Assembly (NCBI RefSeq): GCF_033153115.1
Contig: NW_026889793.1
Coordinates: 2,294,001-2,358,000, forward strand
Reading direction: 5' to 3'
Origin: Saccostrea echinata
Lineage: Eukaryota
Length of the DNA: 64,000 bases
Position numbers and translations under genes: made by a program. The notes beneath the pieces are model-generated. The model had not been told where the DNA came from. It did not search any database and saw only the letters and a program-made list of their open reading frames with translations. Positions 6,301 through 47,180 of the stretch are shown here, piece by piece; position 1 is the first letter of the stretch, and every line of letters begins with the position of its first letter.

Positions 6301-9300
6301 TGTTTGTTCAGATAAATAAGGATGTTTTTTTGGGGCTAGTTGCCAAAATACTCTAAAGAGGTACTTTTGTTGTATAAATTGTAATAGGTGTCCAAAATAC
6401 ACCCTCAAATGCATTGCTTCTTCTTACAATAATAATGTTTTTTGAACTTGAATGTACGAAATTTTGACCTACCAATTATAGCACTTGGTCGGATCTTTTC
6501 TAAGTCTTTTATGTAAGCCCTTGCAAATCCCCTAGAGACAGTAAAAAAAACCCAACAAAATAATGAAGAAAAGCTTATGGACAAAAATTAGAATGATACT
6601 TTGAACATATTACATTATTATACTTTCATGTTAAATACTAAAATCTGATTGGTTTAGAGGCATTTAACAATCCGTAATGTTACCCTCAGCATTAGCAACA
6701 CACTTGACATTACGAAAATATCACATGCGTTCAAATGATGCGCGTACGGTTCACCGTAGAATTCTCAAAACGTCGGTTGTGCGTTTGCAACTGACGCGTC
6801 GGTTGACAATGGTTTTCCTTGGGGTGTCAATTTCAACTGTTACCCTCAAAAACGTGCACTATTTATATAATGACATACCCTTATCTTACCTATAAGCATT
6901 AGGTGAATATATACACTCTGTGGAGAAATAATCCAGCTTCTTAAAGTAGGCATACCTAGTAAACGGAAACAATATATATTATGTACAGTTGAACTTCGAT
7001 ATCTCGAACACAGATATCTCGAATACCATGGATATGTCGAAGTCATTTTGAAGTCCCATTTGCTTATTCCTTAAGTATTTTGAAGTCCCATTTGCTTATT
7101 CCTTAAGTATTTTACCCTGGATATCTCAAATCCTCCATTACCTCGAAGTATTTTCATGGTCCATTTTAGTTCGAGATAACGAGGTTTGACTATATTCATG
7201 TTTTCCTTAATTTACTGACATGTATTCTCTAAGATATAAAAATAAATGTGTATAATCTACAAACATTCTATAGTTCAGCAATCGAGAAAGGTTAAAACCT
7301 ATAGTTTCTCCTGCCTTACCAGTGGTGGATTTATCAGTTTTCATATGATCTAGAGGTTTGACTTACATGACTATCTCTTTCTCGTATGTATACTTGAATG
7401 GTTTACTTCTGGGAAGGGCTCCCTCAGTGCCCTGTAATAAAGATCATAGTCTGAAATTATCTTGTCAAGTTCTTCAAACTCACATTTAAATATTTTTTTT
7501 ATACCTTTAAAAATTTTTTCCTATATAAATCTATACCCAAAAAAGTGTAACATTTCCAATGTTTTACTGAGCGGTCCATAAAAAATCGATTTTTACTACT
7601 GAGTGAATGATTAGGGCTTTGAAGGAGAAACTGTCCTAGTCATTGCAAATAATTTCCAAAATAAAAACCTCTCAATGATGTTTTTACCTGGTACTTCTAC
7701 CATTTCTAAATCATTAGGTTCCAATTTGTTATCAGTTTATCATTCATAACTAAGCATGACTGCATTCAAGATCGTACATGTAGCAGCTAGCCTAACTGCT
7801 AGGTTAGATATCTACATGTAGGTCATATTGAGCACACTGTATAAATAATGCTTATCATAGCTAGGCTAGCATATCGTTCAAGATTGTAGCAGCTATGTCA
7901 AGCTAAGTAGCCACTATGATCTTTAAGGCAGCCCAGATTTATAACAGATTTTTCTATGTTTAGCTACTGATCTGTAATTTACATCTGACACTGATGTTTA
8001 TTTTGTTACCGTGGTGATGGCTGTACACCTCTGTAATCTTCCAATGTCACCTCTCAGTACTGTAATTATAAACAAAATCAAAATTTATCGCACAAATTTA
8101 AAACTTTATGTCATTATGAAATCATCTTTCTTCTAACCTGTGCAAAAACAACATCAATTGTACAATCATGTTAACAAAAATATACAACTGTACAGTCATG
8201 TAAACAAAATTATAGAGTCCACTTTTCAAACATACATATAAATGACAAACCAGTGTACTACATTATAAGACAATCTGAAACATTTCAATCAAAAAGTTAA
8301 TGACGAATTTCCAAACATCTTTCTGTGAAATCACTCATTTTTGAGAGATTTTAATTTTTGTTGTTTTTCATGGTATGAAAAGACCCATGAATTCATGTCT
8401 GCAATGTGAAAACTGCACACTGCAGTGTAACGTTTCTCCTTTAACCATGAAATCATATCCCTTCTAACCAGTAATTTTTCATCAAATCTTGAAAATTTGA
8501 CCCCACGAAAATAAATGATTTTACAGTACCTGTTCATTTTTAATACCGTATATACTCGCCTATAAGTCAGTTTTTTGGGAGTTAAATTTTGATCCAAAAC
8601 TCATCATCCGACTTATACTCGAGTTATAAAAAGACTAGTATTTTAGTGGGTCAATCCCTTCAACTTAAGCTTTAAGAATACAACCGACTTATAGGCGGAC
8701 CGACTTATAGGCGAGTATATACGGTATGTTTAACTTACCATTCATAATCACAGTTTCAGCTATATCATCTGCATTGTGTCCTGAAAATTAAAACAGAATA
8801 TTCAAAGACAAACTCTAATCAAAACTACTTGTTCAAAAGAGGAAAATGGGGAATAGAACAGGTCTTGAAATTACAGAGTAAAGGAAATGGATAAAACTTG
8901 TTTTTTAACCCACAATTATTCAGATTTCTTTCCACCTTTACTTACCATCTTAAAAGATGTTATTTATATGTTTTCATGTGACATTTTGCAAAAGGTATAG
9001 GTGTATCATTATCTATCCTTCACCTTACAGTGCCTGTTACTATTGTATCCACTTTCATAAGAAGGGCACCTCTATCTACAGCCTACTGCCTACAAACTAA
9101 CCAGTTACTATCCTATCCACTTTCATCAGAAGGGCACCTCTATCCAAGGCCTGACGCCTGAACACACCACAGAATGTACCTAAAAGTATCAGATATTTTC
9201 ACAGAATTCACCTCTGAATCACCAGACCTTTAAAACTATGGACAAATCTCAGTATTTAAAGTTTGACTGCCTGTGCAGACAACATCAAGATATCAAAGAG

Positions 9301-12300
9301 TTTGAAACTTCTCAAATGCTGACTTTCTACCTTGTTTCCATGTAAATCTATTAACTTCTTTAAAAGTTTGATTTTCTTTATAAAGTAATGTAAGTAGGGG
9401 AAAATCTTTGCATTTTGTTTCACATGAAACAATTGTATATTCTCTTTTTCTTTTATAAAGACCTTTGATAAATTTAAATTTGTAACTACTGGTATATTTC
9501 GTATAAGATACATACAGTTATTTTTCAGACCAATCTGTTTGACAATAGCGTCCATGGTCCATCCATACAACTCTTCATAAGACACAATCTTCAGAGGCAA
9601 CTCATATTGTTGTTGATTTCTCTTTACTGTCTGAAACAATCAGGAAAACTTTAACTGACAATCAAATATAATATTTACACATACATTGTGTTTAGCTACA
9701 TGTATCATAGATATATAAATTTGTATGTAATGGACAGATTCAGCTGACCATTTTGCCACCTCTGAATAAGCAGGACAATTATCACCAAAAATATCAGCCA
9801 AAGGTTATTCAATTTCCTTTTTTTTTTTAATTTTAAATTTTATTACTTGGTATTTTACCATTGCTTTGTAATCATCAACTCACTAGAATTTCTCTCTCGA
9901 TCAAGAAAATGTGCTAGGCTAAATTTAATATGTTTCAGCTAATGAGATGCTTTTATATCTAGTAGCAGAGATCTTTAATTATTTTGTTGTACAAACCTTC
10001 AACTAGCTCCTAACCATTTGTTGATGTAAACAGCAAATACTTCCCTACTGATTAAAAGATGCATTGATTGTTTAAATAAGGTACATTCCTAATGAGACAA
10101 GTTCTGAAACTATATATATACAAATTTAATAAATATTTTGGTTTGTCCAAAATTGATCAATATTTTTCTGCAGATATTTCTGCAAGGTTTTTAAATCATA
10201 TATCTACTGAGTATTCAAAGGTTTTTAAATTAGAAAACACCCATAGTTTACAGGGTATTCAAAGCTATTTAAATCATCTGACCAAATATCAAGGGTTAAA
10301 ATTCGAATTCTATGCATATTAGCTGGACAATATATCAGAGGCCAGCCATGTTGGATTTATGGGTAAGGAAAGACAAATTTACACAGCTTTAGCACATTTC
10401 ATTCTGATAATTTCTGTCAACAGAGAAATTTACCATATGAAAACTTCAAAAATTTAGAAAATCCTTCAAAGCCTGATTCATGTTATTAATTCGACAAAAT
10501 AGGTATAGTGGTTATTTCTGCAATACCATGTATCCTTAATAATGTTACATGTAATACTGAATGAAACATGTACCACAGAGTACAAAGATATTGGTATGCA
10601 GAGGAATATTCACACAATAAATTTCTTAGGCACAGGGAAAAAAATCTTTACTATTACATGCCATAAAAAAATAAATAAAAAATAGAACTGGTATGTAGGT
10701 TTTGGTTTTTATTTCTTTTTACACAAGGGCAGAACTTTGTAAATATAATTTTGTAAAGACAGTTTGAAGCTCTCTTCTTCTTGCCATATAAGTAACATCT
10801 TTTTTCCCCCTAATCTACCTGATAGCTCTACATGTAAAAAGTTATCCTATAGCCTAGAAACGGTAATATTTGAAGAAAAATGCATATACATACAATTTAG
10901 ATGTTTTACAATGAGAAATTGGATTGGCTCATAAAATTAGCATCAGTCGGGTAACCCAACACAAACATATTTTTTACCCTTTAGGTCTTATAGCTGTAAT
11001 TACCCCAAAGTGTTAATTTCCACATTAACAGAATTCTTTAATAAGTATTTTATGTTCTAGTTCATTAAACACAGTTTAAACATATCCAAATTCAATTAAT
11101 GAATTTGCAATTTCTGAGCATTCTCTTATACCCACTTTTCTGATCTATAGTTTCAGCTGGTCATGTGACCAACACAGCAGTTATGGACCCTAGGTACAGT
11201 GCTCAAGATGTCCTCCGTTGTGATCAATGTCAGACTGATTTAGTACAGAGCTTCTGTCAACTTTGTCACATTAAACTGTGTAAGGCCTGTGTTGGAGAGC
11301 ACCTCTCTGATACATCCAGAAATCATAGAGCCGTACCATACACAGCAAAGAGTTCAGCTTCTAACTACCTGGAATGTCCAGATCATGCCACAAAGCTTTG
11401 TGAATTTTACTGTGAGAAATGTAAAGTTTCTGTCTGTAATACCTGTATCATGTCGAGTAAACATCATGGGCATAAAATTATAGGTATTCAACAAAATCTC
11501 AGCTCTGAAACAAAACAACTGGAGAAAAATCTTAAAGAACTTGAGGAAAAAATTGGTCCACAATATGAAGAAATTTTCTCTGAGTTAAAGTCTGAGAAAG
11601 CCAACATAGGAAAACACTTTGAGATGCTGACAAGAACCGTTACTAATCATGGAGAAGACTGGCATAGAGAAATTGACACCATTGTCAACAAACTCAAATC
11701 TGATACTGATGACATGAAAAACAAACACCTGGCTGACCTTATCAAGCAGGAAAAAGAAATTACCCAGAATATTTCTGAAGTGAAAAAAAATATTCTTGAA
11801 ATGAAGAAAATTCTAGCAAACAAAGATATTTCCCTTATCTCTTCATACAAACCCAGAAATGATGAATTTAGAAAACTTCCTCCTAAGCTGAAAACTTCAT
11901 TACCCAGTTTTTCTCCTCAATCAATCAGCAAAGAAAAAATTTATCAACAATTTGGTTCCTTGAGAGAATTATCCAAGGTAACAGAAGAAAACAGCTACAC
12001 ACTGCTTAATGAACCAAAGCTGATCAAAACCATAGAAACTTTGGACAAACTACGGAGTGTTGTTTGCCTCAGTGATGAAGAAATCTGGACATGTGGGCAA
12101 ACAAAACTCATGAATCTCCACAACCTACAGGGAAAACTACTGGAGTCAATCAAAACCAAGTCAGGGGAATGGCCACAGGATATAGCACTGACAAGGAATA
12201 GAAATCTAATTTACATCGACTCTACTAGACGTACTGTGAACAAAGTGAAGAATGAACAGATACAGGAAGTGATCAGACTGCAGGAGTGGAAACCAAACAA

Positions 12301-38290: not shown

Positions 38291-41200
38291 GGTTCCGACT
38301 CTTTTTTTAGAGCACTACTTTACATTTAACATTTATTTTTCTATCATTTAAACGTTTAGATAGAATGGACACTTTACCCATTTGTATTCCAGAATCTTTG
38401 TATGGCTCCTATAGAGCCATTTTCCAGTAAATAAGCTTATCTGTCATCTAAGAAACAAATTATCAATTAATAAGCTATTCAATATTAATAATAAATGAAT
38501 CAAATTTGTTAAATACGACATTACTTACAAGATATTTTTTTTGAAAAATACAACTTTTCCATTAAGTGAAAATTGAGAAACATATCACAGCGGGGGATAT
38601 TCCTCGCCATATTCGCCCTCATTCTTTCCTTCTAATTTGATTAAATACTTCAATCTGCGTGATACTGATTTGTAAGACTTGCTGTCTCCTCAGGTTCTGG
38701 CGTTTAAAATTTACAAAATGACTGCCGCTGTCATGAAAGCCAAAAAAGGTAAATTTCTGAAAATTTGAATTTTGCATGGTACATGCCAGACCTGGGGATA
38801 ACGATAATATGTAACGGAAATGCATATTGTATTCATTACTACCATTCAAAGTAAGGGAAAGTAATTTTTAATGGTCCATCAATTACAAGTAAAGGCAAAG
38901 TAATGGATTAAATGAAATATGGAGATAACGAACAGTAAAAAAGTGTCAGTAATGACCAATACTTTTCAATAATTGCGTTTTGTCTTATCTTTATTTTTAT
39001 TTATTTTTTTTTTTTGAATCTGAAACCAATCGAGGTCACTGACAGGTGATTTTTTTTATATAAAACATACGTGAGAATAAATTCTTATTTTACCTCTTTT
39101 TTTTAAAATGTTTATTCAATGGCTATTGATAGACATCCTAAATGATTGCTTAGAGAGAAAACATCTTGACACACAGCTATAAAATCAATTGAAAAGATCC
39201 AGGAAAATATACCTATAGAGATCTTTTTCAACAGTAGCCACAAAACGAGTGACAATAGTACACTCTACTGAGCTCTGACCAAGTTTAGTGAAATACAAAC
39301 TAAATTATTTTTTTAACTGAATTTCCTACTTCACAAAATTCATTCTTTGTGAGCAAAATGCGTATAAGATCATTACGATCTACCAGAGCTCACAAAGAAA
39401 AAACTTGAAGGCCAAATATATAGATTTATGTCCATTATTTATTATTTCTGGTAAATTTTAATTTTAAACAGTGACAGTGAGGATCGAAATTAGCTAAATC
39501 TTTTATAATGTTGATCATTTCAAAACCCTTATACACGCGTTTTAAAGATCTCTTTTCCTTCAACCCCCCCTTTAACGATGGTTGGGTACCTCATTCTACA
39601 TGTATGCGATGGAACCGCATGGGGGGGGGGGGTGTGATGGGAAGGGGAGACCGAAATAATAAACTTCTAAAAGTTCTCAAATTTCCATGTAAATCTTACA
39701 TTTGAGAATTTAGAAATTTAAGGGGGATAACGATGTACTCAGATGATAACGATGTACTCAGATTTCAGCAGATCAATCAATCCATTTATTATGATATACA
39801 TGTGCATGTATTATTTGCTCATCTGTGTATACCTGGCGCAGATGGAAGTTTATAAATACTACATTGAAACATCGGGTATACACATACAGTGTAGCAACGA
39901 AGAATCACGGATCGATCAGTTATGTAAGTATATGACATTACAGCTTATTGAGAAGCAAAAAAATAAATAAGAATAGATAAATAAGTATAGGTAAGAAAAG
40001 GAAAATAGTGAGAGGATTTAAATTATCTAATTCTTTCTAACAGTGTGAAATTAATAAAAAAAATTAGATGGTTATTAGTTAGAAATTCAAGTTACTTTTA
40101 ACATTTTCCACTCTTTTTTTCGATTGTTTATTTTGTTATTTTTCACCTTCATTATACAGTTAATTAATTATCAAATCTAAAATTCGTGAAATGTTGAATC
40201 GATAAAGAACATTTTATGGTTTTTCATTTTTTTTTTAATCTTTTTTTTTTCTTTTTTTTTCTTGGATCGATTATAAATTTATATGAATACATATACAATA
40301 ATTCATAGAAATATAATTATTTTATCACGTTTAAGCTAGATCCTAATTTTAACACGAAAAAATAAAATATATATCAAAAATACATTTAGATTACAACCCG
40401 GCCTGGAAAAAGCACAATAAATTTAAAACTACACTGTAATCAGGTGGCTAGAAATATTGGCAGTTATTCTCATCTACCTCAGAAAAATTCAGAAAAGAAT
40501 GTTTTTAATGCTAACATTTTCCTTTTTTTTTTTAAATCCCTTTTTAAATAGTTGATTCGACATTTAAATGCTTATTTTGCATTAATTTATAGATTTATTT
40601 ATTTTTTTTTAATTTAGTAGATGGTCGTATTTAATACAGATATTGGCATGAATGCGTGCATTGTAAAATAACATCCAAACAAAACAAACGTTATGTCTCT
40701 CATTGAAAACAGAACAACGGAGGATAAAAATCTTATTTTACGGGTGTTTAATTAAATTCTCTACACCTGGTCAACTCTGAATACCTTCTGCGCTATGTAT
40801 TACTTAATCGGTTTATTAAAGCGCCCAATTCAATATAATATCGTCTGCTATATGAAGATAGTTTATAACCGTTAGATAATTACGATTTTATTTGGAAACT
40901 TCTTTATCGGCGTCAGCCAGGCAAGGAGAAATCGATAATCTACAGGGCTATTTCTTTCTTTCTCTCTCTCTAGGTCGATTGCAGGAAATTTTATCGTCTG
41001 CTAACATTATTTATGGATGAGTCATCTTTGTTATCGACGTAGAGGCAGACGATCTGACTTCGTTTCCATAGCACCCACTGAAATGTAATTATCCACAGTG
41101 ATCCTAATGCCGTTTTGCCGTGATCTTATTAAACGCGTTCAAAGAGCTCTTGCTTCAGGTTGAAGAATCACTGCATCATTGAGGTAAGAGCTGTATATAT

Positions 41201-42172
41201 TTATTACAATTTAGCTGTTATAAAATTGTGCACTGCTATCGCGCTGTATTTTGTAAATAAGGTTTATACTAACTGGGTCGGCTGGAGGGGCATTTATTTT
41301 TATCTTAGATAAACAAAACACGGATTTTTCTCCGGCGAAATCTTATTTGATTGAAAACATTTGTTAAATTAACTTCACTTTTTAAAGTTTTCAATACAGC
41401 ATACAAATGCTTGAGATTTTAATGCAAATGTATATAAGGCATACATGTACAAACTCAGAGGTGTACACTTTTGTGATGCGTAATATCAATTTACATTGTA
41501 CTTCCAAAAATAACAAAACGTCGGGAGGGTTCCTTTGTTTACGCTATGCAGCTGTTACTGATTTAAATGTGCGCATTTTATGTAGTTAATAACGAAAATA
41601 AATTGATTTAGAGCATGCTCTCGAACAAGTTATTGAAGTCTTAAAAATAGAGCTTGAAAAAAAAAAGATTTGCCTGAAACATGTTTATTTAAACAATCAT
41701 GCATATACCTGTTTTATAAACCCTTATCACAGCTATTTATACAAGATACTCGTTCACGCAAATTTTAGGACAATGTTTTAGATTTTCACTTTACCTTGTT
41801 ATTTGTCATTTACTGTTAATTTAACGAAATTAAATGTCTTGCTTGTGTGTACTTGGTAAGAAGAATAAACTGACTGTTAATTGAAAATCGCAATGGACTC
41901 ACTAATTACATGTTTTCAATAATTATTTTAAAAAAAATATATATCAAATTTATTTCTTTGAAAAAAAGCTATTGTTAAAGGACGTAAAATAATTAAACAT
42001 TCTTCAACATACATGCGAGATATTGAAGAAAGGAAGATGTTTCGAATCGCCAACTACATTTTATTTTATTTTTTTCCAAAAAAAAAAATATTTAAACAGG
42101 CAAATATTATAGGCTAGTATTTTTTTCATATCAAATTGATTGTTAAATGTAATTTAACACGTTTAACAGGCG

Positions 42173-45100
42173 ATGGACGTTGACGGAGAGACGAATGAAA
42201 GTGATGACGTCACAATAGTAGAAGAGACACCAGAAGAGAATAACCATGGAAAAGAGAAAGTCTTAGCACCGCTGGCACCAAAGCCACTTCCTGTAATGAT
42301 TAGACGATCAGTTCCGGGTCATAAGCTCATGCCAACTCGATACCTTACTAACACTAGTCACCCAGGTTTTATCAACGCATGGCGCATGCTCAAGAAACAA
42401 GAACAGTTGAAGAGAGGTCCGAAAGAAAAAGAGACATTCCGAAGAACCATGTACTGTCTTCCAGATAAATACGCAAAACTTCCGAAATTCTCCTCTGCCG
42501 ATCTAGCAGAGAAAGCTTTGGTGCAAGAGCACCAAGATATGGGATATGGTATGTAAATAATGCGGGAAAATCTGATTTTTATTGAAATGAAATTCTTTTT
42601 TTTTTTAAAAATAATCGAAATGTTTTTTGAAAATGACTCATTTTTTGGGGGTCAATTCTAAACAGGCAATGAAAATACTCAAGTTTCATGTGTATGATTA
42701 GATTTAGAAGAAATAATTTTGATATGCCTTTTTGTCAAATTATTCAAATTTCTAATTTTAAAGTAAACTTCTTTTGCTTTGAAGGATATCCTGCTCAAGA
42801 CTATGATTCTAATCAAATTCCCAGAAAAACGGAACTCTGTCTTTCTCTGTCACCTCAAGAATTTGAAAAGCACCTCTCTGAGGTTCTTTACCCAAGCCTG
42901 AAAGGAAAGAAATTCGAAATCTACAAGATAGACAAACAACGCCGTTTGATCCGCCTCGCCAAATACACTCCCCGAGCAATCAAAGACTCCAAGTATCAAG
43001 GCAGCCTCATTATCATACCATATGTAAGTACACGAACGGTACAGTAATTATGTTCGTGCTCTAATACACTGATACAAAGATTAAGATTGTTAACCAGTTC
43101 AAGGATAGTCAATGAGGAAACTAAAGACTCAGAAGGCGCTCTAAGGGGAGCACTTTAAGATAACAAAATTAAACTAGTGTCTGCTGCATTGAAACAAAGG
43201 ACTACTCATGTCTTTATTGTTATAAGATATACACATGAAATCATATTATCCATCACGAGTTATTTAAAATTACTATTTAAAAATCATGATATGATCGAGT
43301 CGCCTAATCCATAAGTACCTTAATTCCCAGAGATGTTTCATGAAGATTTTTATTATTCACTTTTTCGCAGGTAAAGGAGGAGGATCGCCCCCCTCAGGTC
43401 CTTTACCGTTGTGGGGAGGAATACTTCATGCACCAAGTGTCTTCTACGACCAGTCCCCCAAACCAAATACCTCTCATCGGAACCCCTCCAGAGTTACCGA
43501 GACCTATCAGTGAGGGTAGCGTTGAAGGGGCTTCACAATCGTCCATTGCCACGTCATCCACAAATTTTCAAGTGACGTCACCAAAGCACCATGTCATTCA
43601 CCGAAATCCATCACCATCTCCTCCAATGGTACAACAACAAGTTATCGTGAGTTTGGGTTTTTATACATTACAGTGGCGGATCCAGAAGTCCACGTGGGGG
43701 GGGGGGGGGGGGGTTTGAGGTCCGTAGGGCCGAAGGGGGAGGGCATGGGAGGGGATGTCCCCCTCCCATAGGTGGGGGTTCGGGGGGCCTCCCCCGAGAA
43801 ATTTTCTTTAAAAATGGCTCCAAATGGTGCATTTTCCAGCATTTTAGATTGAATTAATTAGTTCTTGGCCACTTTTTTCCTATAGTTGTTTTTCAAGACC
43901 GACCTACCCAAATTTTCAAGAAATTGAACAAAAAATTAAAATTTTGGGATTATTTTTAACTTCCATGTTAACTTGAAAAATGAGACTTTTCTAAAGAAAA
44001 AGTTAAATGTAAAATCTGATAAAATTAGAAATATCGCCATTTGCTATATAATATCCAATTCTTCATTATAAAATGCACGTCCTACACACTGTCGCATGTG
44101 AAGCTTTGTCTACCAAAATACAACTGCATGATGTGCAATTTTCAAACACTTAGAACATTCGAATTCTGTGTAGAGACCCTAATTACTCTTTTCAACTACT
44201 TGACTATACAGTTCATATAATTTGCAATATATACACATAATGATATTTCATATCGAAGAATAAATATAAATTATTTTGGAAAATAATTGGAATTATTGCT
44301 TATTCATTGGGGGGGGGGGGTAATTATAATTTCTAACATAAATGCACTCTTTAATTCTATTTTTTTTTTACCCATTTACCTGCCCAATGTTTGAAAAAAA
44401 AAGTCTTGAAAAACAATCAATAAAAAATTGGCCAATTCTTGTTTTGACAGGACCTCTAATTTATTCGTATTAGTTTTACCACAATTCATTATACAAAGTT
44501 GTAACCGTTAGTTGGGTTTTATTCAACATCATTCAACTGTAATTTTAAAAAAATGCAGATCTTTTGCTTTTTAAAATTGCATTGTAACTTCCATCTACAA
44601 AAGGAATACTTTCAATGTGCTTTTTGGTACAGGTCACAACGTATTTCAACTAGTATACGTCCCTGATGTATTAATTAATTTTTTTTCTATTAAATAATAA
44701 TCACAGTTTATTCACGTAGTTCAATAAAGTAACATTCAATTATCGAAGAAAGAAGAAAATTCTCGAAACAATATTACTTTAGCCAAAACAAAACCGTAAT
44801 AACTATGTGCAGTTTTGGTTGTTAGTGTATGTCGTTGCGTCATCACTAGCTGCACGGACTATCATGATCTCTGCATGTACAGTACTGTTGATTACCTGTA
44901 TATTGTGTGCGCTCAAGCGGAAAGGGATTTCGCATGGTGACTGTATATTTCACCTCTTTGTGTAAAACAATGGGCTTGGATAGAGTTGCATTTATGCAAT
45001 ATATTGTTAAAATGACACTGTAAAAAAATTTTTTTTGATCGGGCGGGGGGGTTTTCCCGAACCCCCCCCCCCCCCCCCCCCCCAAACCCCCCTGAATCCG

Positions 45101-47180
45101 CCACTGCATTGTACCATACATGTTGTTTTATTAATTTTCATCGAGATTAAATTTCGTAAATACAATTTCGTTAATGCGTAAATTGTTGGACAGGTACCGT
45201 GTCCTGTTCTATATAATCAATAAAATCTTTACTTCATTTATCAACTCAGTTCGTGGCATTGCTCAACCACGAAATCAAAGATAATTACTTTTCAACGAAA
45301 AATGACGAAATCACAATACATCTAAAGCTGCAATAATTTTTTTTTATTTTCACGTTGGCTAGAAAAGTATTTACATCAATTTATAAAGTTTAACTTAACA
45401 TACTCAGGAGTGCAGTTTACCAGCCAGATCTTTACATATCTCATTCATCTGTATGCAGATCTGATTTTAATTAGTGGGTAACTGCTTCTTTCAGCTGGAC
45501 TTGACTAACACCGTTATTAAATGTGAAACAGAACATGTATCAGAACAAAACGTTCCCAGAGCCAACTTATCTATTGAAACTAAAGGTAAATAATGTATTT
45601 TTTTCCTTGAATATCCTACTATAATAACTTTGAAAATTATTCTGCCTTTTTTCATATTTTCTTTGATCCGCTCACATAGATTGCTAAAAGGATCTGAAGA
45701 GATCCGGTTAAGGGTTATCTCCTGATGACCTTCAATTTATACCCAATCAAACGTTCATAATTCTCTGGTTTCGGACATATAAACTTTTCGTTGCATCAAT
45801 GCAATTGATATTTGCACTTGATCTGTTTTAATTCGTTGATTTGTATGAACTTGAAGATCTTTTCTACAGCTAATTTCACTTCAATGTTCGACACCCTGAA
45901 GGTCGATAAAGTGCGAGCTCTCTGATTGGCTAAAAGTTAGAGGAATGTTTTTGTTTGAAAGATTACCAGGAGATGACCCTGAATGGGATTTCTTCAGATC
46001 CTTGTGTTATGATCTATGTGAGCGGATCAACTGATCTGGTTTTAATCAGATTGTTTTATTGTCAATTTAGTAAAATATAAATTTCATGTCGTGTTTTATA
46101 TTTTTCACAGCAAAATGCAAGATATTTGAAATATCTGAATTCCTCAGAATGCAAATCCAGGAAAAAACTTTAATTCATATCAGAAGATCCCATGTGTTGT
46201 CGGATGTCATAAAAATCTACCAGAGAAACCCGGCAATACTTCAAAGTGATTTTAGCGTCTGCTTTGAGGAACATCCATGTAATGATGACTCGGATCACGT
46301 GCCATTGTCACCATATGCGATGTTTGTTGAGTTTTGGAAGGAAGCATTTGCAAATGTTTTTGCAGGCAATCAAGAATCTGTCCCAATGATAGACCTCTCC
46401 ATTGATCCAGAGTTTTTCAAAACGCTTGGTAAAATTCTTTATCATGGACTTATACTGTTAGACTATTGGCCCGTAAAATTATCACAGGCTTGCGCATGCG
46501 TAATGATTCTGAATACGTGTTCTGATCGACAACTTCTGACGTCACTACATCGAACCATGTCTGATCAAGAGAGATCTGTAATAACTGAGGCAAAAAGAGA
46601 AATCCGATCGGGGTGTTCTGAATTTTCTCTTTCAACAACAAGAAGCTTGTACCAAGTTCTCCGCTTATATGGCAATACACAAAGACCAAAGCCTGGAAAT
46701 CTAGAACAACTTCTACTACAGATATCAAACTACTACTTAAAGCAGAAGTCGTACTGGGCGTTGTTTGAAATGAGGAGTGGCCTACAGTCTACTGTATCAG
46801 ACTTTCTCGGTCATTTGGAGGAACAGGACGTGTTCACATTCTATTCACTCCTCACCCCAAACGCTTTATCCTTATTTGAAAAGACAATCTACATGTTCTC
46901 CGCCGCAGACAACAGCATTAATGAAATGGAAGAAAAGCGTGTTAAAATGTATTTTGAGAACTTTGTAATGAAACTTAATTGTGAAACCCTTTCTGCACTT
47001 CTCATTAAATGGAGCTACTCGGATTGTCTCTGCATGGAACACTTGTATGTGCGGTTTTTGCCCAATGCTATTTCTGACAGGCCTCATTTTGATCCAAATG
47101 AGACCACACTGACGTTGTCGTCTGTGTATACGTCACAGGAAGAACTTCATCAATTGATGATGTCAGAACTGGAGACGTAG
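42173..47180 (+). CDS. Uncharacterised 683-aa protein with a C-terminal HECT-like (G2E3-like) domain apparently lacking the catalytic Cys
   Basis: Exons 42173-42548, 42785-43023, 43371-43646, 45495-45585 and 46111-47180; GT-AG introns with phases 1,0,0,1; 2052 nt open to TAG. A probable non-coding upstream exon ends at ~41183 (GAG|GTAAGA). The last exon has HECT N-lobe patterns (IHIRRSHVLSDVIKIY..FSVCFEE, FVEFWKE..FAGNQESVP, FKTLGKILYHGLILLDYWPVKLS) and a C-lobe pattern (LYVRF..RPHFDPNETTLTLSSVYTSQEEL). Confidence 0.85.
43671..45106. mobile_element. Non-autonomous DNA transposon with CAGTGGCGGA TIRs and subterminal G/C tracts, in intron 3 of the HECT-like gene
   Basis: Left end CAGTGGCGGATCCAG followed by poly-G; right end poly-C followed by CTGAATCCGCCACTG. 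Flanks are CATT-A and CATT. Confidence 0.7.
43865..44435. mobile_element. GGCC-ended MITE (same family as 13977-14470) nested in the CAGTGG element
   Basis: TTGGCCACTTTTTT..GTTGTTTTTCAAGAC / GTCTTGAAAAACAATCAATAAAAAATTGGCCAA with 3-bp TTC flanks. Confidence 0.75.
45663..46030. mobile_element. MITE with long (~80 bp) imperfect TIRs in intron 4 of the HECT-like gene
   Basis: TTGATCCGCTCACATAGAT..AAGGATCTGAAGAGATCC..AGGGTTATCTCCTG pairs with CAGGAGATGACCCT..GGATTTCTTCAGATCCTT..ATCTATGTGAGCGGATCAA. The TSD is unclear (possibly CT). Confidence 0.75.

Follow-up and report, generated by a model that had tools for sequence, protein, structure and literature searches.

A spliced, mollusc-conserved gene for a HECT-like protein without the catalytic cysteine, and its probable link to IS3EU transposons

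The stretch of Saccostrea echinata DNA analysed here (64 kb, referred to as the window) contains an intact, spliced gene that is conserved among molluscs and whose product has neither the catalytic cysteine nor the acidic N-lobe motif of HECT ubiquitin ligases. Structure prediction gives this protein a ubiquitin-like fold and a HECT fold. With the predicted HECT fold kept, the catalytic residue lost, and the gene spliced and under purifying selection, the protein is likely a pseudo-HECT. The explanation that best accounts for the data as a whole is a Cys-less HECT adaptor or brake, probably a domesticated ligase of an IS3EU transposon; we see the chances for and against this overall explanation as evenly balanced.

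A first-pass annotation of this DNA, made from the sequence, had described an intact gene with an uninterrupted last exon of 1070 nt, and this description holds. The open frame runs from 46074 to 47180 (368 codons, stop to stop) with an AG acceptor just 5' of 46111, and at this composition a run of 355 sense codons has a chance probability of ~3e-12. The coding sequence is split into five exons, all with canonical splice sites; with the first counted from its ATG (42173-42548), they encode a protein of 683 amino acids (Table 1). This gene model differs by three residues from the RefSeq protein XP_061192085.1 of Saccostrea echinata, which is labelled "uncharacterized". The peptides that the first-pass annotation had quoted (IHIRRSHVLSD, HPCNDDSDHVP, FKTLGKILYHG, SDCLCME and RPHFDPNETTLTLSSVY) were all found in the translation.

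Splicing, for which confirmation had been sought, is seen directly: all four coding introns are joined, with GT..AG joints, in transcript-type contigs from three of four runs (X1, X2 and X4, belonging to two studies), and X1 and X4 contigs also have a 5' non-coding exon spliced on. The four runs (X1, X2, X4 and X6) were classed as "probably RNA" by an automated guess. No splice joints were seen in the contigs of run X6, which come from a related organism. The insertions reported earlier within introns are present and leave the frame intact; they are an element of 1.44 kb in intron 3 and a MITE-like element of 368 bp in intron 4. The ends of the intron 3 element (43670-45106) are inverted and G-rich, and sequence related to it occurs in transcript-type contigs. 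One further near-identical copy of the gene was found in the genome, on contig C38. It was considered as a paralogue but is read as the other haplotype, as the two regions are collinear over ~30 kb, mostly at 93-96% identity.

Table 1. Positions in the window of the gene, its domains, its key codons and its intron insertions
Feature	Position	Strand	Basis and remarks
Non-coding 5' exon	41044..41183	+	Joined to next exon in runs X1 and X4; in-frame stops upstream of ATG; start uncertain
Coding exon 1 (start codon at 42173), with the disordered N-terminus and the start of the ubiquitin-like domain	42170..42548	+	Gene model, full-length structure model, spliced contigs
Ubiquitin-like (beta-grasp) domain, predicted, residues ~80-205, split by intron 1	42410..43023	+	pLDDT; Z 4.4-6.1; 41-62% identity to non-oyster orthologues
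Coding exon 2	42785..43023	+	Gene model, spliced contigs
Coding exon 3, mostly disordered linker	43371..43646	+	Gene model, full-length structure model, spliced contigs
1.44-kb element with terminal inverted repeats, intron 3	43670..45106	.	Haplotype comparison; missing from second haplotype
Coding exon 4, linker	45495..45585	+	Gene model, spliced contigs
368-bp MITE-like element, intron 4	45663..46030	.	Inverted-end match; 19-nt perfect inverted ends
Last coding exon, whole HECT-fold domain (predicted), residues 329-683, stop at 47178-47180	46111..47180	+	Frame, structure model, structural matches, spliced contigs
Decayed acidic loop of the N-lobe, residues 378-397	46260..46319	+	Alignments; lowest pLDDT block of the HECT domain (68)
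Cys633 codon, W-x4-C-L motif; candidate structural or migrated catalytic Cys	47025..47027	+	29/29 clade rows, 2/13 sister rows
Codon of Asn657, which takes the place of the HECT catalytic cysteine	47097..47099	+	Cys in 85/91 relatives and 13/13 sister rows; in the model, within the turn that links strands 653-655 and 660-666

The structure model and the profile and language-model searches are the basis of the HECT assignment. The Pfam profile is silent: PF00632, the check first suggested for this gene, gave no HECT match at its curated cut-off for either the exon or the full protein, and no Pfam family matched at all. A search of solved structures with the single sequence returned one chance match (E 0.41). 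When a profile of 150 relatives was used against solved structures, it matched HECT domains (best E 1e-14). In the Atlas (language-model) search the first match was a HECT domain (0.96), and the exon was placed beside HECT and G2E3-like clusters (0.95-0.96). Modelling and structural comparison, also suggested at the outset, came out clearly for a HECT fold. The AlphaFold model of the HECT part has a pLDDT of 96.2 and a pTM of 0.92; every match listed by Foldseek for this model was a HECT entry (best E 8e-12), and its best VIA match was UBR5 (Z 25.1, 335 residues aligned, rmsd 4.8). The predicted fold is bilobed, spans ~350 residues and sits at the C-terminus. Pseudogene decay or a wrong fold assignment would be consistent with the missing Pfam HECT match and with the single-sequence search of solved structures, but splicing, a pN/pS of ~0.05, full-length orthologues in three mollusc classes and the fold match itself argue against it, and we count this very improbable reading as already refuted.

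The model of the full-length protein also folds confidently over residues ~85-208 (pLDDT blocks of 72-93 over residues 81-210). This N-terminal domain matches many ubiquitin-like domains with Z scores of 4.4-6.1, which we read as a predicted beta-grasp arrangement and assign to no family. It carries two conserved basic stretches, KRGPKEK and RIDKQRRLIR. The full-length model has a pTM of 0.53 and a disordered linker between the domains, so we make no claim on how the two domains are arranged. The first-pass annotation contained neither the ubiquitin-like domain nor the IS3EU link, the range across molluscs or the invariant Cys633.

At the active site, R-P-H-F-D-P-N-E-T of the oyster protein aligns with R-P-I-A-H/N-T-C-S/G-x of its relatives, placing Asn657 in the catalytic column. 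The first-pass statement that this site has no cysteine is therefore correct. In the clade of orthologues, the catalytic column holds a residue other than Cys, of many kinds, in 27 of 29 rows. The remaining two rows group with Octopus and have Cys in the column by one alignment; by the other alignment, which includes one of them, the same Cys falls two residues past it. A Cys at this later position occurs in 4/29 clade rows, counting the two alignment-dependent ones. The Thr that precedes the catalytic Cys in 83/91 relatives is not conserved in the clade, and conservation of the FxTGS motif is lost as well. A cysteine of SDCLCME in the catalytic position had been named in advance as an outcome that would overturn the first reading; SDCLC lies on the FxTGS loop, ~24 residues earlier.

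The N-lobe has lost its acidic loop, in line with the earlier claim that the G-x-D-x-G-G/V motif is replaced. Among 91 relatives the motif E-x-G/A-x-D-x-G-G-x-x-R is well represented (E in 75, D in 65, G in 79, R in 67), and it is not conserved in the clade. Mean column identity, compared between 18 clade rows and 13 sister rows, is 0.12 vs 0.60 for the acidic loop and 0.18 vs 0.59 for the catalytic hairpin, whereas for the N-lobe segments in residues 398-577 it is 0.30-0.43 vs 0.21-0.34, that is, equal or higher in the clade. From the HECT layout, residues 465-535 are presumably the E2-binding subdomain.

An aromatic residue in the C-terminal tail of HECT ligases has a role in ubiquitin transfer. 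Such a residue is found within the last six positions in 74/85 Cys-bearing relatives and is absent here, as the first reading had noted: the last aromatic is Y667, 16 residues before the protein end. The aromatic tail is gone in oysters, mussels and scallop. Some clade members retain it, so this loss is not clade-wide; the rows P0016, P0018, P0020, P0184, P0186, P0187 and P0188 (the named ones being Dreissena, Mercenaria, Mactra and Mya) share a conserved terminal W-E-Y-T/S-L/F. By established HECT chemistry, as set out in the available part of PMC9547173, a protein that has lost the catalytic Cys and the acidic loop is not expected to take up ubiquitin from an E2. It is thus highly probable that no ubiquitin thioester can form.

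This conclusion would be overturned if the protein were an active, atypical ligase with a rebuilt active site, its nucleophile having moved to Cys633 or to the Cys629/Cys635 cluster. Cys633 is present in all 29 clade rows, Cys635 in 20 and Cys629 in 18, and W628, L634 and F643 are invariant in the clade, with F654 nearly so. Migrated catalytic residues are reported for other pseudoenzyme families (PMC10211241, in part), and excerpts of further sources describe supposed pseudoenzymes that proved active, namely USP53 (PMC12037411) and G2E3 (PMC3673628 vs PMC12920882). Yet the 633 column in active relatives is mostly V, I, T or L, a hydrophobic character that suggests a buried side chain, and two sister proteins carry this Cys in addition to the canonical catalytic one. 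The loss of the acidic loop, and of the aromatic tail in oysters, mussels and scallop, also speaks against a working active site, and we regard a migrated nucleophile as improbable. The surrounding Cys-rich motif W-C/S/T-x-x-D-C-L-C (window 46997-47033, residues 624-635), also present in orthologues, could serve in putative metal binding or redox sensing.

Orthologues were identified in Saccostrea, Ostrea, Crassostrea, Tegillarca, Mytilus, Pecten, Solemya, Potamilus, Sinanodonta, Dreissena, Mercenaria, Mactra, Mya, Haliotis and Octopus, and full-length ones occur in three mollusc classes. They form one clade (28/119 rows, SH-aLRT 100) in a first tree, for which 70 of 189 sequences, fragments and near-duplicates, had been dropped beforehand. 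The trees built afterwards were limited to selected sets of 61 and 45 rows. In the 45-row tree, with the trait columns removed, clade support was 100/100 and the branching order was cephalopods, gastropods, bivalves; P0024 and P0027 are two deep members of the clade. The trees thus show a single origin of the clade, which follows mollusc phylogeny.

The gene is under strong purifying selection. Compared with the second haplotype (C38), it shows 15 silent and 3 amino-acid-changing differences (pN/pS 0.055); compared with the contigs of run X6, there are 34 silent and 6 amino-acid-changing differences among the 40 listed out of 56 (pN/pS 0.049). The DNA for these estimates comes from the second haplotype and the contigs of one run because scans of metagenomes for related loci found none. 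The first-pass annotation had held that absent or neutrally evolving orthologues would undo its reading; orthologues were found across molluscs, and pN/pS is ~0.05.

Outside oysters, identity is 41-62% in the ubiquitin-like domain, 30-41% in the N-lobe and 19-51% in the C-lobe, with 19-51% for the HECT part overall. Conservation is highest in the ubiquitin-like domain and much lower in the HECT part, whose fold may therefore be secondary. This would fit a dead HECT scaffold outside the ubiquitin system, in which the basic ubiquitin-like domain acts (on chromatin, RNA or one protein, for example) and the HECT domain is a structural or interaction module. The basic stretches of that domain, and a C-lobe identity of only 19-36% in heteroconch bivalves, abalone and the cephalopod group, favour such a scaffold; however, both lobes are whole, with many invariant residues, in every full-length orthologue that was aligned, and the N-lobe segments are conserved at least as well as in the active sister proteins. 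We consider this scaffold unlikely, although it deserves more weight than a migrated nucleophile.

We propose instead that the protein acts within ubiquitin signalling. Its ubiquitin-like domain would serve to dock on a partner. The N-lobe, being preserved, would keep a binding surface for an E2, for E2~ubiquitin or for an active ligase, and the protein would thereby compete with active HECT enzymes or tune them. Docking and the N-lobe surface together would make it a non-catalytic adaptor or brake, a role that we think could equally prove right or wrong. When the HECT part was modelled together with a UBE2L3-like E2 of Saccostrea (two runs, no alignments), the score was 0.00, which is uninformative on binding either way.

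The relatives of the gene point to mobile DNA. Searching the oyster's own genome with the exon yielded 15 further loci at 20-26% identity, most of them long intronless frames, and the related loci with an intact end retain the T-C motif. Flanks were examined for 14 related HECT loci, ten from this list and four found later. A DDE transposase lies on the opposite strand beside all 14, and TA..TA inverted ends with 6-bp duplications were found for 11, all but C22, C18b and C46. Pfam rva_4 is present in both transposases that were scanned, and the C25 transposase, compared by eye, reads almost like IS3EU-1_CGi_2p in the supplement of PMC10045372, of which part was available. The same source, in the part available, defines IS3EU by a DDE transposase, TA..TA inverted ends and a 6-bp target duplication. 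The IS3EU families of this genome are 11.5-21 kb long, have TACG..CGTA ends and 6-bp duplications, and combine a DDE transposase with a convergent intronless HECT gene, in most of which the Cys is intact; within each family the copies share 96-99% identity. Several IS3EU families are spread over contigs C1, C16, C18, C25, C28, C34, C36, C47, C56 and C75 (loci L003-L037 and L118-L125).

One IS3EU element resembles the oyster gene more closely. This 21-kb element, on contig C54 at ~24495510-24516463 (L101, L102, L115), contains a multi-exon gene with ubiquitin-like and HECT parts. Its ubiquitin-like domain is the same as in our gene and is split by an intron that matches intron 1 in codon and phase. 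HECT exons with the T-C motif follow the ubiquitin-like part, putatively in a single transcript. The element is inserted in a PIF1 helicase frame, probably of another mobile element. The sister group of the mollusc clade consists of Cys-bearing proteins, including ones from Priapulus (XP_014674228) and Mytilus (XP_063442660 and CAC5363318). The ubiquitin-like domain is shared by a Cys-bearing Mytilus coruscus protein (E 1e-21), a member of the cluster behind sister row P0044.

The transposases and inverted ends at the related loci, the domain and intron shared with the C54 element, and the domain of the Mytilus sister protein therefore make domestication likely, and the gene would then derive from the ligase of an IS3EU transposon; that the transfer ran in this direction and not by capture is what we infer. 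Descent from the intronless IS3EU HECTs of this same genome was tried and rejected, since a joint clade of six of them with the gene's clade has a p-AU of 1e-49; these local HECTs are thus not the direct source. Somewhat more probably than otherwise, the ancestor was transposon cargo whose fixation predates the divergence of cephalopods, gastropods and bivalves. The contending view is that an ordinary, G2E3-like host ligase gene was ancestral and that transposons captured copies of it independently, with no domestication. The rejected joint clade fits such a host origin, as does the window, in which we found no transposase, no TA..TA IS3EU ends and no 6-bp duplication, and the available part of PMC12730594 reports that IS3EU elements pick up passenger genes. 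A host origin accords less well with the transposases that adjoin all 14 related loci examined, with the domain and intron position of the C54 element, and with a HECT domain held in one exon, as in the cargo genes. We consider it a real possibility, albeit the less probable of the two.

A further reading gives the transposons a different part, making the gene a host defence decoy, a dead copy that poisons IS3EU ligases or competes with them. The genome does carry many recent IS3EU copies with a Cys-bearing HECT (97-99% identical), and one IS3EU element has the same ubiquitin-like domain. However, slow purifying evolution and apparent single-locus inheritance are unlike an arms race, and the intronless transposon HECTs of this genome share only 20-26% identity with the gene. 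We regard a decoy as improbable, to the same degree as a migrated nucleophile.

Among described systems, the pseudo-HECT proposed here shares with the class IV HECTs (UBR5/EDD, G2E3 and GL-Metazoa in the available part of PMC3673628) a bilobed C-terminal HECT fold, UBR5 being its best match; it differs from them in lacking the catalytic Cys, the acidic N-lobe motif and the aromatic tail, in falling below Pfam detection and in having an N-terminal ubiquitin-like domain. Vertebrate G2E3 likewise has a divergent HECT domain, once called non-functional (PMC3673628, same part). G2E3 has RING/PHD-like fingers, however, whereas Pfam finds no finger in the oyster protein, whose N-terminus is ubiquitin-like and whose HECT site has no Cys. 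H3K14 ubiquitination by G2E3 is reported to depend on a catalytic cysteine, the domain that holds this residue being unstated in the part of PMC12920882 at hand. The HECT cargo of IS3EU/GingerRoot belongs to the same divergent HECT family, and in one element both the ubiquitin-like domain and the intron position agree with the oyster gene; this cargo keeps its Cys and is multi-copy, between TA..TA ends, whereas the oyster gene is one locus with an apparent allele and has no transposase or ends. The protein is accordingly set apart, by the features that define each, from active HECT ligases, G2E3 orthologues and IS3EU elements.

Ubiquitin-system folds that regulate or scaffold without catalysis are known from pseudo-E2s (UEV/Mms2; PMC10211241, in part) and, as non-catalytic RING folds, from the TRIM-family pseudoligases (preprint 10.1101/2024.10.15.614675). 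For HECT, the review PMC10211241 asserts that pseudoenzyme counterparts do not exist; the 'pseudo-HECTs' of Leishmania are partial domains of 60-69 aa in the available part of PMC7647121, and the part of a Mytilus HECT survey (PMC11353290) that could be consulted mentions neither Cys loss nor transposons. A literature search for a described pseudo-HECT or a transposon-borne HECT recognised none for this family, within a coverage that lay outside most subscription journals and Repbase; Repbase may already describe the HECT gene of IS3EU.

A Cys-less HECT of single origin, under selection and mollusc-wide, is a direct counter-example to the view that there is no dead HECT, and one that Pfam-based surveys miss. 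We tentatively suggest, while judging it somewhat doubtful, that it represents the first conserved pseudo-HECT family in animals, domesticated from a transposon's ubiquitin ligase in the mollusc ancestor, stripped of the catalytic apparatus of both lobes, and retained since then as a regulator able to trap E2~ubiquitin or restrain active HECTs, those of IS3EU included. Such a family offers a natural test of the uses of a HECT domain without catalysis; if a thioester formed after all, the active site of this HECT would have moved elsewhere. The family would also extend the sources of domesticated genes to transposon cargo, beyond the transposases.

Several other features lie in the window. An intronless frame with B-box, coiled-coil and NHL-like parts (TRIM-like) occupies 11144-12544 on the + strand, flanked by minus-strand frames at 9256-9639 and 15450-15770, which by motif resemble exons of a putative tRNA thiolation gene. 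An intronless bHLH gene, presumably Olig-like, is found at 23094-23966 (Pfam HLH, E 1.5e-15), and a LINE-type element at 430-2142 has two reverse-transcriptase frames with a stop between them.
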